6,700 bases of DNA from a virus (IMGVR_UViG_2534682222_000016), one strand, 5' to 3'. Counted from the first letter of the stretch, positions 1,659-6,401 are shown. Notes: generated from the letters alone by a model not told the origin. Numbers and translations: made by a program.

Positions 1659-4130
1659 TTAAGAATCAGCCTGACTCGGGATCAGTTTTTGCCAGATAAC
1701 TGAAACGTATTTTGCCTGGTAACGGGCGTCATCAAGTGCATTATGGCGCTCACCTTCGAATGGAATAGCCGTTCTGGCATCGAAGTCTATGGCTTTCCCC
1801 AGCTCAACGATTGTGCGTACATCGCGATCGTTGTAGTAACGCCACGGGCAGGGGATCCCCTGCCGTTCGTATGAACGGCGCAAAATCGTGTTGTCGAAGT
1901 TGGCTCCATTTCCCCAAACCTGAACAAAAAATTCACCGGAGTTTTCGTCGATAAATTCCCGCAATTGTAACAGTGCATCATCTAACGGGATTTCATCGGT
2001 CATAATGGCAGATTGCGCTTCGCGTGATTGCTTAAGCCACCATTTAATGGTGTTCCGATCAATGACTCCGCCAGCAGTTTCCAGATCGATAGTCTTACTA
2101 AATTCCGGTCCCATATCTCCGGTTTGCGGATCGAAAAATATTGCACCTATTGAGATGATCGGGGCATCAGGATTTTTTCCCATGGTTTCAAGGTCGATCA
2201 TTAGATGGTCACACGTCCTGCTGGTGGATGTGATTTCGTGATGACCGTTCACCTTAATTGAGTGATCTGCCGTCTCGCCAGTTTCATTATCGCTATTGTG
2301 ATGCTGATTGCCGCCAGTGTTCTCCTTGTGTGGATGTTCAGCGCCTTCCATTTCCTCCGGATCATCTTCCTGAACTTCAACCTGATATTCTTCATCGAAT
2401 GTTTCTTGATATGTTGCGTCGCCCATCACCGCGCCACAATCAGGGCAGTTGCCGCCGCCGGTCTGACCGCAGGCGGTGCAGACTTTTTCCACTTCCTGTT
2501 GCGCCACTGGTTCAGGCTGTTTCGTTTCTGGCTCGTTTTGTAACGCATTTGTGCTGTTTTGTTCCGCTTTTTGGTAGTTCCGTTCCGATTCATGCTGGTT
2601 CTGGTTCACAGAATCGCGGGTCTGGATCCCCTTAACCCATTTCGGATCATTCGGGTCACTAATCCCTTCAACAAATTCACCACGTGATGCAGCAAGCAAC
2701 TTATCGGCGTCAGGCTGGCTGATATTGGCTGCCTGCATAATTTTGTTTACTTCGTCAGCGGTAACTTTTATCGGCTCTGGTTGTTCTGAATCTTCAGCGG
2801 TATCTACATTTTGCGGTAAGCCCGTGTATGTGCCATTTTTTCGGGCAAAATATTCTTCTTTTGTGATTTCAGTGGCGCCAGCAGCCAGTGCCTTATCCAG
2901 ACCAGAAAGTTTGTTTGCGCGACCGTATTTTTCTCCGTCCTTATCTGCGAAGAGGAAATAGAACGGCCCCTCACGCTCTACAGATGGTTCAGCTTCCGGC
3001 GCGGTTTCATTTTTTGGGATATCAGATACCTCAGTTTCCACTGCATCAGTTTGTGTTTCTGATGACTGGAGAACATCAACAGTGCCCAGGTCTGTTTCTT
3101 CATTCTCAAACACGCCCTTTGTCGTCAGGTATTCGCAGATATATTTGTTCAGTGCTATGGGATCTTTGTGAATGTCGATCGGACGCTCACGGACAAGGCC
3201 AAAAATAGTCTGGCGGTCGTAGCGAAGGGCATCAGGCTGTTTGCGCATTGATGCCGAGATACGCTTCCAGTCTTCGCGGTCGTTGTCGATAACTTCTTTT
3301 TTTGCCCAGCGATGGATGCTGCCGTCAATGTTTCCGGCATCCACATCACTAGGCCAGAGAGCGTAGGCCAGTTCGTCATCCAGTGTTTTCCATGTCTGCT
3401 TGTATTCGCGATGAATGGCAGCAATGACCGGGCTGATTTTTCCTGTTGAATTTTCAGTGTACTGTTGATTGGCTCTGGCGCGGGCGAGATCAACAACAGA
3501 CGTGTATTTTCCGGTTTCCTTGCGTTCACCTTCGCGACGTTTTTTCCAGATGCGCATCTCTGCCTGAATTTCGGGCCATTTAGCACCAGGAATACATTTA
3601 TGCTTAACCCACCCAATGGCGTGCAACTTAAGCTCCGGATACATGGCGTTAACTTCTGGCATTTTCATCAACGCTTCAACGATATGTCCGTCGAATGTTG
3701 CCATGTCTTCCTGCAACAATTCCTGTGCGCTAATAACCATATCAACGGTGATGTTTTCACATGTGTCGAACTTAACCATGACAGCGTTCTGTACTTCAGG
3801 GGCCAGCTTGTCAAAAGTGACGTTCATCGGATCGGATTCAGTCTCAACCGGGACAAAAGAAGCAGACTCCTCATCCCAGCGGTTTTCCTGCATATATTCA
3901 GCATCCCATGAATCGAGGGCAGGGCGGGGTATGCCAGGTTTATCCTCGCAGACAATAAATTTATAAGCGCAGTCCTGAGCAGCCGGATAATGTTCCAGGA
4001 ACTGCCAGTGAAATTTTGCTCGAGCACGGCGTTCGTCGCCAGCTTCAATGGCTGTGGCTACAGCCACAGCGCCTTCTTCCCTTGTTGCCAGTTCGTCAGG
4101 AATAGCGGCGCAAATAAAGACTTTACTCAT
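1659..4130 (-). CDS. Prophage exonuclease-like protein, 823 aa (often annotated exodeoxyribonuclease VIII/RecE-like; N-terminus YdfE-like), with C-terminal DEDDh 3'-5' exonuclease domain
   Basis: Single uninterrupted 823-aa ORF. C-terminal residues about 640-815 (nt about 1686..2213) carry the DnaQ-like motifs: Exo I MIDLETMG, Exo II WGNGANFD, Exo III HNALDDARYQ. Residues 551-565 (nt 2436..2480) form a CxxC-x7-CxxC zinc ribbon (CTACGQTGGGNCPDC). Residues about 340-640 are strongly acidic and low-complexity. Confidence 0.85.
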   Translation of the reverse strand: MSKVFICAAIPDELATREEGAVAVATAIEAGDERRARAKFHWQFLEHYPAAQDCAYKFIVCEDKPGIPRPALDSWDAEYMQENRWDEESASFVPVETESDPMNVTFDKLAPEVQNAVMVKFDTCENITVDMVISAQELLQEDMATFDGHIVEALMKMPEVNAMYPELKLHAIGWVKHKCIPGAKWPEIQAEMRIWKKRREGERKETGKYTSVVDLARARANQQYTENSTGKISPVIAAIHREYKQTWKTLDDELAYALWPSDVDAGNIDGSIHRWAKKEVIDNDREDWKRISASMRKQPDALRYDRQTIFGLVRERPIDIHKDPIALNKYICEYLTTKGVFENEETDLGTVDVLQSSETQTDAVETEVSDIPKNETAPEAEPSVEREGPFYFLFADKDGEKYGRANKLSGLDKALAAGATEITKEEYFARKNGTYTGLPQNVDTAEDSEQPEPIKVTADEVNKIMQAANISQPDADKLLAASRGEFVEGISDPNDPKWVKGIQTRDSVNQNQHESERNYQKAEQNSTNALQNEPETKQPEPVAQQEVEKVCTACGQTGGGNCPDCGAVMGDATYQETFDEEYQVEVQEDDPEEMEGAEHPHKENTGGNQHHNSDNETGETADHSIKVNGHHEITSTSRTCDHLMIDLETMGKNPDAPIISIGAIFFDPQTGDMGPEFSKTIDLETAGGVIDRNTIKWWLKQSREAQSAIMTDEIPLDDALLQLREFIDENSGEFFVQVWGNGANFDNTILRRSYERQGIPCPWRYYNDRDVRTIVELGKAIDFDARTAIPFEGERHNALDDARYQAKYVSVIWQKLIPSQADS

Positions 4131-4223
4131 TTTGTTTTAACCTCATGACAGATTTAAGGATGAACAAATCCCTGCCATTGCTGGCATATAAGAATGAAAC
4201 CGGATATTTATTACGGAACTGTT

Positions 4224-4415
4224 TTAAAGACCTGCCGGGATTTCGATATTATCCTGGTGAATAACTTTATCGACCGGGTAACAGTTACCGGGAATTTTCT
4301 GTTCGGTTGCTGCAGTCATACACTCCTGCATTGTCCTGTGAACACTGACTGCAATATCAACTGGCTCTCCGGAAACAAGAAAAACTGTCAGAACAAGCGC
4401 AAATGCTGAATTCAT
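4224..4415 (-). CDS. ydfD: YdfD-like small membrane/lysis protein, 63 aa
   Basis: Start chosen at the internal Met (MNSAFALVLTVFLVSG...), giving 63 aa with a hydrophobic N-terminal segment. Its ATG overlaps the dicB stop as ATGA (4412..4415), indicating translational coupling. Position directly downstream of dicB matches Qin ydfD; identity is by position, size and recall. Confidence 0.65.
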   Translation of the reverse strand: MNSAFALVLTVFLVSGEPVDIAVSVHRTMQECMTAATEQKIPGNCYPVDKVIHQDNIEIPAGL

Positions 4416-4600
4416 TGTGCACATCCTTTTGGCATCAGACGTAAACGAGCCAGCATTGAAACAATGCATATTTTATTTAATAGCTCCCGTTCTTGTTTTC
4501 TCTTGTTAATGGCATCTTCAGTAAATACAGGGTTACTGATAGTGACACCAATTTCAAAACAACCTTCAGACGTATTAACGTTTGGTAATAACGTTTTCAT
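4412..4600 (-). CDS. dicB: DicB cell-division inhibitor (MinC-dependent), 62 aa
   Basis: Internal start giving MKTLLPNVNTSEGCFEIGVTISNPVFTEDAINKRKQERELLNKICIVSMLARLRLMPKGCAQ, which I recognise as DicB. GAGGA lies 7 nt upstream of the ATG. Located immediately downstream of DicF as in the Qin dicB operon. Confidence 0.8.
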   Translation of the reverse strand: MKTLLPNVNTSEGCFEIGVTISNPVFTEDAINKRKQERELLNKICIVSMLARLRLMPKGCAQ

Positions 4601-4769
4601 TATCGCGTCCTCAACAATGAATTTTGTGATGCAGTGCCTGGTGCCTCCAGGTGACGTTAACCAGTTAACAATTAACGCCGGATACAGAGAATCCACCCAT
4701 AACACTGTTTTTGGTTTTAACTGTTCCGCGTGCGCTTAGCCGCATTCACCGCATCACAAAATTCACTTT

Positions 4770-4813
4770 AAAAACGGCGGCAGAGCAGTCACGGAGTAAA
4801 ACTGATACCGCCA
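4770..4813 (-). terminator. Intrinsic-terminator-like hairpin plus U-tract forming the DicF 3' end
   Basis: On the minus strand, GGCGG...(nested CAGU/ACUG)...GCCGCCG is followed by UUUUU (plus-strand AAAAA at 4770..4774). dicB follows downstream, so termination must be partial. Confidence 0.55.
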
Positions 4814-4827
4814 AACGTCACCAGAAA
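4772..4827 (-). ncRNA. dicF: DicF small regulatory RNA (Hfq-dependent antisense sRNA targeting ftsZ and other mRNAs)
   Basis: Reverse complement of 4775..4827 reads TTTCTGGTGACGTTTGGCGGTATCAGTTTTACTCCGTGACTGCTCTGCCGCCG followed by TTTTT. This matches the 53-nt DicF sequence as I remember it, and it sits between the ydfA-side genes and dicB. Confidence 0.85.
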
Positions 4828-5102
4828 ATTGATAACAGAGGGCGTTGCAGCGGGGTTGTCACTTAAGCGTATGGTCAACCTGACAACTCGGTGTCCTCAA
4901 CGGGGAAGGAATAACCCCGCCATACTTACCGCCGCGCCATTTCGCGGGTTGCCACAACCGGAAGCGCACGGTCGAATTAAATTTAACGACACCGTACAGT
5001 GAGACGAACTTCGCCGTGCGCTTTCGTGTTGTGTGCCTGCTTTTAACCACGTCAGGCGAGGTGGTATCCTTCTTATTCCGAATAACCAAGAAGGAAATCT
5101 AT

Positions 5103-5303
5103 ATGACTAAAGAAGAATTTGTCTCTTATATTTTTGATAAAACGGTTGAAATGTATGCCGCTACTTACGGGTCCTGTAATCCTCTGAATAAACCAGAGGG
5201 GAAAGATGATTTCGACAAAATTTACCGCTTCTTGGAGGACCGCTATATCAAAAGGTTAGAGGACGCAGGGATCAAATCCCCAGTGAAGTCACCATTGTCC
5301 TGA
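5103..5303 (+). CDS. Candidate small protein (66 aa), function unknown, antisense to the dicB-operon transcript
   Basis: ATG at 5103 is preceded by AAGGA (5091..5095) at 7-nt spacing. The ORF encodes a charged, helix-like sequence (MTKEEFVSYIFDKTVEMYAATYG...). Its 3' end overlaps the 3' end of the convergent 121-aa ORF by 32 nt. No homolog recognised; it may be a chance ORF. Confidence 0.35.
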   Translation: MTKEEFVSYIFDKTVEMYAATYGSCNPLNKPEGKDDFDKIYRFLEDRYIKRLEDAGIKSPVKSPLS

Positions 5304-5637
5304 GAACTTGCAGGACGTCATGATCGTAACTTCCATCCAAACCGCGACGGCAAATTGCTTCTCGTATTACCGGAAGCAGTTCGCTGGAAATCTCGGTGCA
5401 TATTTCACCTGCTAATACGCCTGGCTCAAGTGAGAATATTGGTGAACTTACGGTCTTGGTCTCGACAGTTTCAGAGTCAGTGCCAACATTATAAAGCTCA
5501 ACGAAAGCGGTCTTGATTTTCCGGGCCAGATCTTTTGCTGGCTCGCTTGCAATATCTTTCCCGATTTCTCGCAGCACAGAATGCAATGTATGAGCTGCTG
5601 TTTTCTGTACATCAGACGGTAAATCTTTAAATTCCAT
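5272..5637 (-). CDS. Hypothetical protein, 121 aa (position corresponds to ydfB/ydfC of Qin)
   Basis: Minus-strand ORF with codon composition typical of coding sequence. GAGG lies 6 nt upstream of the ATG at 5637. An alternative start at 5649 overlaps the ydfA stop as TGATG. Family assignment is by position only. Confidence 0.6.
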   Translation of the reverse strand: MEFKDLPSDVQKTAAHTLHSVLREIGKDIASEPAKDLARKIKTAFVELYNVGTDSETVETKTVSSPIFSLEPGVLAGEICTEISSELLPVIREAICRRGLDGSYDHDVLQVLRTMVTSLGI

Positions 5638-5648
5638 CGTCAGCCTCA

Positions 5649-5801
5649 TCAGTCAGTGTTTCTGGCTAACCAGCAACGCGCGCCAGATTCGGTTTTAAAC
5701 GTTTTGCTTTTGGTATATGTCATCGCGGTGAACGTACCGTCCTGGTTGGGGAACACGCCACATACCAGAGATTCGCTGTTGCCAAGATCGATAGTATCCA
5801 T
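5649..5801 (-). CDS. ydfA: YdfA-like small protein, 50 aa
   Basis: Internal ATG at 5801 with GAGG 5 nt upstream gives MDTIDLGNSESLVCGVFPNQDGTFTAMTYTKSKTFKTESGARCWLARNTD. The longer track ORF (start 5957) would contain the predicted promoter -35/-10 and operator, so the short form is preferred. First gene after the leftward promoter, as ydfA is in Qin. Confidence 0.65.
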   Translation of the reverse strand: MDTIDLGNSESLVCGVFPNQDGTFTAMTYTKSKTFKTESGARCWLARNTD

Positions 5802-5877
5802 GCTGACCTCATTTCCCCTTAACGCCGGGGTAGCGGAACTGTTTGCTGAGAACACCGTGCGGTGTGTTGATGGAGGT

Positions 5878-5960
5878 AATTTAGATTTCTCATTATTTTT
5901 CGTCAAGGTTTTTTGATGAGAAAACTCAAGTATTGGCGCAAGATAAAGCCAATACATTGA
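5878..5960. promoter_or_regulatory. Leftward early promoter (dicBp-like) with operator-like motif and adjacent inverted repeat
   Basis: On the minus strand: -35 TTGACG (plus 5901..5906), 17-nt spacer, -10 TAAATT (plus 5878..5883). Just upstream lies ATGAGAAAACTCAAGTATTGG (5916..5936), sharing a roughly 20-nt motif with the dicA/dicC intergenic region. It overlaps a perfect 8-bp inverted repeat GTATTGGC (5930..5937) / GCCAATAC (5948..5955), which could also act as a terminator-like hairpin after dicA. Confidence 0.5.
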
Positions 5961-5993
5961 AATGTAAGGCTTTAAAATTTTGTGAAGGGATGA

Positions 5994-6401
5994 TTATTGA
6001 TGCTTGTTGCGTTTGCGAGCCTCTAATAGCTCGGTGAACAGGCGATTAAAATTCTCAACGCGGGCGCGGAGTTCGCTGAGTTGTGCTTGTTGCTCTGATT
6101 TAGGAAGTGCGCGATACAAACGCAGCATCTCTAACTCATCTTCCGATAAGTCTAAGGCACTATCGAGTGAAACAGGGGGAGCTGGTGTTTTGTCCTCGTC
6201 GCCAAACAGTATCCAGGTTGGTGAACATTGCAATACCTCGGCGAGGCGATGCAAATTTTGCCCACGCGGGGCTGTATGGTCACTTTCCCATAATGAAATT
6301 GATGAGCCAGATACGCCAGCAGCTTTGCTTAAACCGTTTTGACTTAAGCCTACCTGCTTACGTCTTTCTCTAATGCGTTGACCTAAAGTTTTCTCGTTCA
6401 T
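5994..6401 (-). CDS. dicA: DicA-like XRE-family HTH repressor (prophage immunity repressor), 135 aa
   Basis: Start at the internal Met gives an N-terminal HTH (MNEKTLGQRIRERRKQVGLSQNGLSKAAGVSGSSISLWE...) followed by LQCSPTWILFGDEDK, which I recognise as DicA/RacR-family. It is divergent from a Cro-like gene. An alternative upstream ATG at 6452 has no RBS and would overlap the rightward promoter. Confidence 0.85.
   Translation of the reverse strand: MNEKTLGQRIRERRKQVGLSQNGLSKAAGVSGSSISLWESDHTAPRGQNLHRLAEVLQCSPTWILFGDEDKTPAPPVSLDSALDLSEDELEMLRLYRALPKSEQQAQLSELRARVENFNRLFTELLEARKRNKHQ

Follow-up and report, generated by a model that had tools for sequence, protein, structure and literature searches.

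The window, by which the whole 6,700-nucleotide stretch of viral DNA is meant, was found to be the early-left arm of a lambdoid DicB/Qin-type prophage of E. coli, and many complete genomes match its positions 4700-5700 at 100% identity. The genes run leftward in the order DicA-like HTH repressor, DUF1391/YdfA, a 121-aa gene, DicF, DicB, YdfD, exonuclease, xis and int. A gene of 66 codons on the opposite strand, designated gene A, lies between DicF and the 121-aa gene and overlaps the last 32 nt of the latter, all of its neighbours being oriented leftward. The features of the locus are:

4775..4826, minus strand: DicF sRNA (Rfam RF00039, 72.5 bits, E 5e-15), with no overlap with gene A
4962..5023, minus strand: long inverted repeat (AAGCGCACGG ... 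CCGTGCGCTT), a 10-bp repeat giving a long hairpin in the leftward RNA
5035..5070, probably two-sided: conserved element of about 36 bp upstream of gene A, GCCTG-CTTTTAACCAC-GT-CAGGC-GA-GGTGGTATCCT
5045..5657: mosaic module (predicted promoter element, gene A and 121-aa gene), replacing ydfB-ydfC of K-12 Qin
5091..5095, plus strand: Shine-Dalgarno AAGGA of gene A, 7 nt before the ATG
5103..5303, plus strand: gene A, 66-aa CDS (MTKEEFVSYIFDKTVEMY...KSPLS), WP_000159335.1, PHROG 34441
5272..5303, both strands: overlap of the 3' ends of gene A and the 121-aa gene, 32 nt
5272..5637, minus strand: 121-aa gene (PHROG 33007), an N-terminal backbone-type domain plus the B domain
5275..5412, minus strand: partner domain B, the C-terminal ~46 residues of the 121-aa gene (GEICTEISSELLPVIREAICRRGLDGSYDHDVLQVLRTMVTSLGI), two predicted helices
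5994-6452, leftward: DicA-like HTH repressor

The frame of gene A opens with ATG at 5103 and closes with TGA at 5301-5303. The original prediction, made from the sequence alone, had described this frame with its Shine-Dalgarno and the leftward neighbours, and all of these were present as described. It had also taken the gene to be unannotated, which did not hold. The PGAP annotation places WP_000159335.1, a 'hypothetical protein', at the exact coordinates of gene A in a strain that is 100% identical over 4700-5700. The gene is already annotated in the record of the induced phage mEp460_ev081, whose gene order matches the window and which encodes an identical 66-aa protein. The protein also belongs to the PHROG 34441 family, its profile matching residues 1-66 of 66 with E 1.5e-50. 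The literature search found WP_000159335 mentioned in no paper. The mechanical ORF list contained a longer, 95-aa version with a GTG start at 5016 (extension 5016-5102, plus strand), which was rejected because the upstream part is a conserved non-coding element and the homologues begin at the ATG.

The window holds 73 ORFs of at least 30 aa and the length of gene A alone is within chance; the gene was rated above chance because of the comparative evidence and not because of ORF length. Homologues of 65-66 aa were found at 89, 88, 73, 57 and 54% identity in different prophage backbones, and in six diverged loci the frame and the length (65-66 aa) are preserved down to 54% identity. The Shine-Dalgarno region GAAGGAAA is conserved in 8 of 10 aligned homologous loci. 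Codon alignments of the six loci (15 pairs) gave dN/dS values of 0.08-0.28 at dS 0.25-2.8; the synonymous sites are saturated, most changes fall at third positions, and the first 16 residues of the protein are invariant despite synonymous substitutions. Intact homologues are present in Cedecea, Kluyvera, Atlantibacter, Klebsiella and Edwardsiella phage EPP-1, the group at 54-89% identity including different genera. As judged from these comparisons, gene A is almost certainly a real translated protein-coding gene under purifying selection. The small protein that the original prediction had proposed on this strand is supported by the dN/dS values, and the reading frame, whose conservation in related prophages it had put forward as a check, proved intact.

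A paralogous 63-aa subfamily (PHROG 2605), about 30% identical to the gene A protein, includes WP_000159356.1 of CPS-53-like prophages, SfII_36 of Shigella phage SfII and an Edwardsiella phage protein. Only 25 family members were recovered by a profile search of 1.84 billion representative proteins; three of them are long, multi-stretch matches (722-2,124 aa) and the others are small proteins of at most 117 aa. All source names shown for members belong to Enterobacterales. In E. coli, gene A is carried by ~390 of 5,426 complete genomes (~7%), including the E. coli B and NEBExpress lineages.

The gene A protein is acidic (pI 5.3) and hydrophilic (GRAVY -0.68) without a transmembrane segment. 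Its AlphaFold2 model (pLDDT 78.8) is a helical hairpin, H3-22 and H31-54, with a short tail, and fold searches with this model returned generic helical hairpins only. There was no significant Pfam match, and no defence, exclusion, toxin or regulator family was matched in Pfam, NCBIfam, PADLOC or PDB sequences. When Pfam, NCBIfam, PADLOC, PHROGs and PDB were searched with A and B, with their paralogues and with ten further cargo proteins of the slot, only PHROGs of unknown function or sub-threshold zinc-ribbon matches were obtained. Three known classes were considered and rejected. A type I toxin-antitoxin calls for a small hydrophobic membrane toxin, which this hydrophilic protein is not; a type II system does not fit A and B, which are convergent and have no Pfam or PADLOC domains; and the SieB family is unrelated in sequence and size, with no Pfam match for gene A.

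The comparison with related prophages revealed that gene A travels as part of a module. Identity between K-12 Qin and the window is 98% over 3364-5044 and 91% over 5658-5872, with nothing matching between; K-12 Qin carries ydfB-ydfC between these two flanks. In two unrelated prophages (L008 and L009) the homology to the window is limited to ~5017/5028-5637. These limits define the mobile unit as ~75-85 nt of upstream DNA, gene A and the convergent gene. Gene A is missing from K-12 Qin and from L007 between otherwise homologous flanks, which is the presence/absence pattern of a moron; an own terminator, another mark of a moron, was not found, the sequence scan giving no intrinsic terminator on either strand over 4600-6000. 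In L007, a related DicB prophage with a RacR-type repressor, the slot of gene A holds a 148-aa predicted membrane protein (PHROG 6315; 3261-3707, plus strand) ~200 nt after a degenerate element.

The convergent side of the module was analysed in the same manner. In every gene A locus the 3' end overlaps the 3' end of a convergent ORF, by 32 or 39 nt in 24 of 26 loci and by 56 nt in L002 and L005. Between contexts the 121-aa gene shares only its C-terminal ~45 residues, the B domain, which elsewhere is a stand-alone ORF of 54-68 aa convergent to a gene A homologue (in Cedecea, a CPS-53-like prophage, SfII, Kluyvera and other contigs). Residues 1-55 of the 121-aa protein match PHROGs 9419, 1363, 2151 and 6937, and the gene is therefore a chimera of a backbone domain and B. 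Outside the overlap, the B domain of the window compared with that of Cedecea has pS 0.86 and pN 0.23, and B is therefore constrained as a protein. The AF2 model of the 121-aa protein is all-helical with low confidence (pLDDT 50).

Each B-domain search followed by neighbourhood inspection recovered an A-like 63-aa gene. Among the matches listed for the upstream element, 124 element-linked loci were available that had been sampled independently of A or B; the B-domain HMM matched 26 of the 29 loci with A cargo and 0 of the 95 with other cargo (Fisher p about 1e-24), a co-occurrence that could partly reflect tight physical linkage. The three A-cargo loci missed by the HMM carry B in their DNA, frameshifted in one and below the HMM threshold in two. 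Both A and B are predicted helical hairpins of ~45-60 residues, and because of this a direct A-B complex is tentatively taken as the likeliest relationship between them.

Several irregular forms of the partner gene were observed. The 121-aa gene of the IMG/VR locus L105 is frameshifted between its two domains. In L006 a 68-aa partner gene B (PHROG 15476; 3217-3423, minus strand) is absent from the RefSeq annotation of UPEC_U013, and phage SfII has no CDS annotated at the B position (L018 about 3654-3860, minus strand), a gene that callers predict elsewhere. In Cedecea (L003 3568-3897, minus strand) the stop codon of the B ORF is gone, and the frame continues antisense across the whole of gene A (109 codons). 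The Cedecea pair lies between cro and a cII-like gene, outside the left arm.

The block GCCTG(T)CTTTTMACCACNTCAGGCNNGGTGGTAT(C)CT at 5035-5070 is nearly invariant between both protein subfamilies and is invariant across loci whose proteins share only ~30% identity. On the plus strand it contains TTTTAA at 5041-5046, a gap of 18 nt, TG at 5062-5063 and TATCCT at 5065-5070, which together have the form of an extended -10 (TGnTATCCT) with a -35-like hexamer TTTTAA/TTTTCA; the predicted rightward start is near 5076-5078. Conservation in 79 distinct copies, among the matches listed, extends from TGCCTG as far as the -7 T (-44 to -7), and the -10 of these copies has the pattern TATnCT, as expected of a -10 hexamer. 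The site was not called by a simple consensus promoter scan (7 of 12 hexamer matches), because its -35 is weak (3/6). A look for TSS evidence in published tables came back empty. In L007, where gene A is absent, the -10 of the degenerate element is destroyed. The module boundary (5017-5047) leaves room solely for a promoter in the element. Gene A is thus likely to have a promoter of its own there, a prediction from the sequence. The original prediction had looked for a rightward start in the interval 5040-5100, and this is where the promoter-like element and the Shine-Dalgarno were found. The 5' region of gene A (5072-5140) is less structured than its shuffles (z +1.58), and a start near 5076 would give a short, unstructured leader. 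A hairpin at 5069-5097 was considered as a structure sequestering the Shine-Dalgarno and set aside, as with this start it probably lies outside the gene A mRNA.

On the minus strand the same element gives an RNA in which two 5-bp stems, ACCAC/GUGGU and GCCUG/CAGGC, interleave. Their first loop is short and the third rich in A, and in this form they may be read as a predicted H-type pseudoknot geometry. Single-base variants of the CAGGC arm are nearly absent (0 and 1 matches), and the rare single-base variants of the element comprise four changes that are wobble-compatible on the minus strand vs two mismatches. RNAalifold on the plus-strand upstream alignment gave a 4-bp stem only, with no covariation, and an Rfam search (E up to 10) over 4830-5450 returned nothing. 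The 'promoter' spacer is conserved far beyond promoter needs and, in the Rac variant described below, the stems persist without the -10; from both it follows that the conservation of the element may largely serve the leftward RNA and not gene A. The element is thus probably two-sided: one strand would serve as the cargo promoter, and the other would give the leftward RNA a structure that forms its 3' end. A repeat, GCCTG-N14-CAGGC, flanks the -35 and could hypothetically be a binding site for CII or another regulator; this candidate is unattractive because phages with YdaT-type vs CP76/YmfL-type regulators share the same sequence.

The 28-nt core pattern of the element was detected in at least 120 IMG/VR viral contigs. 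Among the matches listed, 124 of 133 copies of the element are followed by an ORF of 30 aa or more with an ATG start, which with few exceptions lies 27-38 nt after the TAT; these 124 ORFs form at least 19 unrelated families, among them A/A2, zinc-ribbon proteins, small membrane proteins and YmfI. Among the same matches a leftward repressor gene lies beyond the cargo stop in 109 of 113 informative loci (median 506 nt). The leftward neighbour gene has an N-terminus common to the cargo types and a C-terminus that varies with the cargo. Ten representative cargo proteins gave no Pfam match above the curated cut-off, and no hotspot cargo that was examined matched a known defence family. As read from the sequence, the slot near the repressor is a hypervariable cargo hotspot in which gene A is one of many alternative cargo genes. 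Both this position and the convergent partner domain had been missed by the original prediction. As an observation on the leftward partner genes of several other cargo modules, the N-terminus in L060, L086, L031 and L093 resembles a ClpX-type zinc-binding motif (CSFCG...ICSECV), and a partner with this motif is present in L006 (3483-3703) as a frameshifted remnant.

Two occupants of the slot are found in K-12, for which RNA data are available. The e14 element (L020 3919-3962; NC_000913.3 about 1201418-1201461) is near-identical to that of the window. The Rac variant (L141 2565-2600; NC_000913.3 about 1418564-1418599) lies upstream of sieB and has compensated stems, GCCCGG/CCGGGC and ACCACC/GGUGGU, without the -10; this type of variant is abundant, with SieB as its main cargo. 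In MG1655 RNA-seq analysed with ExcludonFinder, ymfI-ymfJ (e14) and sieB-ydaF (Rac) are listed as convergent excludons (PMC12288877). Term-seq (PMC7815308, supplementary files 1-3) recorded a strong leftward 3' end at 1201423 in e14 under all three growth conditions, which is 2 nt past the CAGGC arm of the element, and a second strong one at 1418562 in Rac, 3 nt past the CCGGGC arm of the variant. Neither end has a U tract, and the e14 end was scored as not Rho-dependent (PMC7815308). The same data contain a Rho region in ymfJ together with a rightward 3' end antisense to that gene (PMC7815308); the e14 transcript analogous to that of gene A ends in the Rho region inside ymfJ. Late in the SOS response ymfJ rises by about 4.8 log2 and ymfI by about 2 (PMC11002266). 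The Term-seq 3' ends lie at a non-canonical, possibly pseudoknotted structure. With the element read as two-sided, its structure might set a stable 3' end or attenuate the leftward immunity/early transcript, and the other cargo families, at least 18, might be an unstudied reservoir; both proposals are doubtful. Two further observations were made in these prophages. A very abundant Term-seq 3' end (scores about 1e7) at NC_000913.3 1203751 (minus strand), antisense to the e14 cII-like ymfL, is reminiscent of lambda OOP RNA. The Rac sRNA KilS (L141 2406-2503, minus strand) lies immediately leftward of the element, where the window has DicF, and has terminator-proximal sequence (attcaccgcatcacaaaattcactttaaaaa) in common with window 4745-4826.

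The relation of gene A to DicF was analysed on the basis of the K-12 processing pathway, in which the dicBp transcript yields a 190-nt DicF species by an RNase III cut and a 53-nt species by an RNase E cut (PMC10448788). By K-12 homology the 5' end of the 190-nt species maps to about window 4961-4964, and the RNase III cleavage site would map onto the base of the inverted repeat 4962-5023. The leftward RNA over 4940-5110 is unusually structured (z -3.5). DicF occupies 4775-4826 and its precursor extends to about 4964, and the predicted gene A transcript from ~5076 runs away from both; gene A as an antisense RNA to DicF was rejected. On the leftward RNA gene A is located upstream of DicF, and its own transcription proceeds away from DicF. 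By the architecture and by analogy with the K-12 pairs, its transcript must be antisense to the polycistronic RNA of the dicB operon as well as to the 121-aa gene at its 3' end. The original prediction had the transcript fully antisense to the DicF precursor or to the 3' end of the 121-aa gene. The second part stands, extended to the operon RNA, on the architecture and the K-12 analogues; the first falls away for both the 53-nt and the 190-nt species (about 4775-4964).

The organisation was compared with known systems. The sieB gene of Rac, lambda and P22 has the same slot and orientation as gene A, following the repressor and the DUF1391 gene and convergent with the leftward genes, and in Rac it is preceded by the element variant with compensated stems. 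SieB is, however, a membrane protein of ~160 aa and not a 66-aa soluble acidic hairpin, with no sequence or fold relationship; in Rac the -10 of the element is lost and a distance of 69 nt separates the searched motif from the sieB ATG that follows it; and gene A, unlike sieB, has an obligatory partner domain B. The sieB genes of P22 and lambda carry an in-frame Esc product. The layout of e14 is identical, with a repressor (ymfK), a leftward ymfJ, a convergent ymfI overlapping it by 63 nt and a near-identical element 38 nt before the ymfI ATG; there the RNA data point to transcripts that overlap and to a leftward RNA that ends at the element. The proteins themselves are unrelated, and YmfI/YmfJ were rejected as distant homologues of A/B (hhalign probability below 1%). 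In K-12 Qin the ydfB/ydfC genes occupy the same position as the gene A module, between ydfA and DicF in a 91-98% identical prophage arm, but both are leftward, there is no reverse gene and the element is deleted.

Moron hotspots (P2, P4; BstA; Tha) resemble the gene A slot in their presence/absence polymorphism at a fixed position between conserved flanks, in diverse unrelated cargo and in orientation against the lytic operon. The bstA gene adjoins the phage repressor. Tha, cited in PMC12288877, lies in a non-contiguous operon and is a published precedent for a defence gene in reverse orientation that the lytic operon around it silences. The gene A slot differs from these hotspots in that no cargo matches a known defence family, no terminator was found, and the 3' part of the adjacent backbone gene is exchanged along with the cargo. 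As far as the literature was searched, the organisation as a whole, with a partner domain, a near-invariant element and a cargo slot shared with ymfI and, through the variant, with sieB, is undescribed.

Gene A is read here as a lysogen-expressed accessory gene that is convergent (excludon-like) with the dicB operon, uses the slot shared with ymfI and sieB and works with B; a rough probability of 0.55 is given to this reading. It would be a translated 'moron'-type gene of a lambdoid DicB/Qin-type prophage, transcribed rightward from its own extended -10 against the leftward early (dicB) operon, and it would act together with B, with which it shares convergent coding and overlapping 3' ends. 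The product would be made in lysogeny, while the early operon is repressed, and would be silenced once dicBp fires, because the two transcription units collide and overlap. By analogy with K-12 this interference, with gene A on in lysogeny and off after induction, may be granted an even chance. The A and 121-aa CDSs overlap by 32 nt with no intrinsic terminator between them, an overlap of transcripts being on record for the analogous K-12 pairs only. Transcription of gene A, together with the structured element, would, as we infer, damp leaky read-through towards DicF, DicB and YdfD. B, made early after induction or infection, could speculatively be a modulator or self-immunity factor, and a protective or exclusion role of gene A with B as its modulator is equally a matter of speculation. 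It is a tentative proposal, likewise, that the element and the repressor gene frame, in lambdoid prophages of Enterobacterales, a hypervariable hotspot of convergent pairs, each a cargo with the matching C-terminus of its neighbour and SieB being one, in which A/B would be a new two-protein exclusion/self-immunity module.

Instead of defence or exclusion, A/B might be a regulatory or toxin-antitoxin-like pair that tunes the lysis-lysogeny switch of the prophage or its early expression, for which modulation of the repressor, an antirepressor or host proteases could serve as examples. The pair adjoins immunity genes in every context, including Cedecea where it stands between cro and cII, B follows the repressor in the same orientation, as the next gene or the next but one, reciprocal control comes with the convergent overlap, and defence-family matches are absent. 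This reading is nevertheless unlikely: a slot with at least 19 cargo families including SieB is typical of dispensable accessory genes, close relatives such as K-12 Qin are without A/B, the convergent layout is unlike that of type II TA operons, and the gene A product is not a hydrophobic type I toxin.

The RNA might also be the main product, a rightward antisense RNA or transcriptional interference directed against the dicB-operon transcript, with the peptide incidental. The leftward polycistronic RNA is complementary to all of the gene A transcription unit, which also reaches into the 121-aa gene at its 3' end, no terminator follows gene A, the analogous K-12 pairs are called excludons, and the leftward RNA is strongly structured here. 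Against this stand the protein-level purifying selection with saturated synonymous sites, a start codon, Shine-Dalgarno and length conserved across loci whose DNA is about 70% identical, and an N-terminus of 16 residues kept invariant through synonymous changes, as an antisense-only role preserves no amino acids; the proposal is quite improbable. Of the choice originally offered between a small protein, an antisense RNA or both, the protein is upheld, and a pure antisense-RNA role leaves the protein-level constraint unexplained. Least probable by far is a chance or decaying frame picked up by gene callers and conserved through the recent spread of one module, for although ~395 E. coli records hold copies at least 99% identical and silent on selection, several database variants are truncated or frameshifted and functional annotation is absent everywhere, intact homologues at 54-89% identity occur in different backbones and genera with dN/dS well below 1, and the AF2 model is confident from a shallow alignment.

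The context matters more than the gene itself, which alone is an annotated hypothetical protein whose confirmation adds little. With the module, dicBp is separated from the toxic DicF/DicB/YdfD genes by a convergent transcription unit and a structured element, and control of DicF and DicB in carrier strains may therefore differ from that in K-12; the published dicBF work (PMC10448788) leaves gene A uncovered, because K-12 Qin is without it. With the element as a search sequence, many small uncharacterised gene pairs could readily be collected from the sieB slot. If such pairs are protective or confer self-immunity, prophage defence hotspots would be extended to lambdoid phages and to very small proteins that are missed by domain searches.
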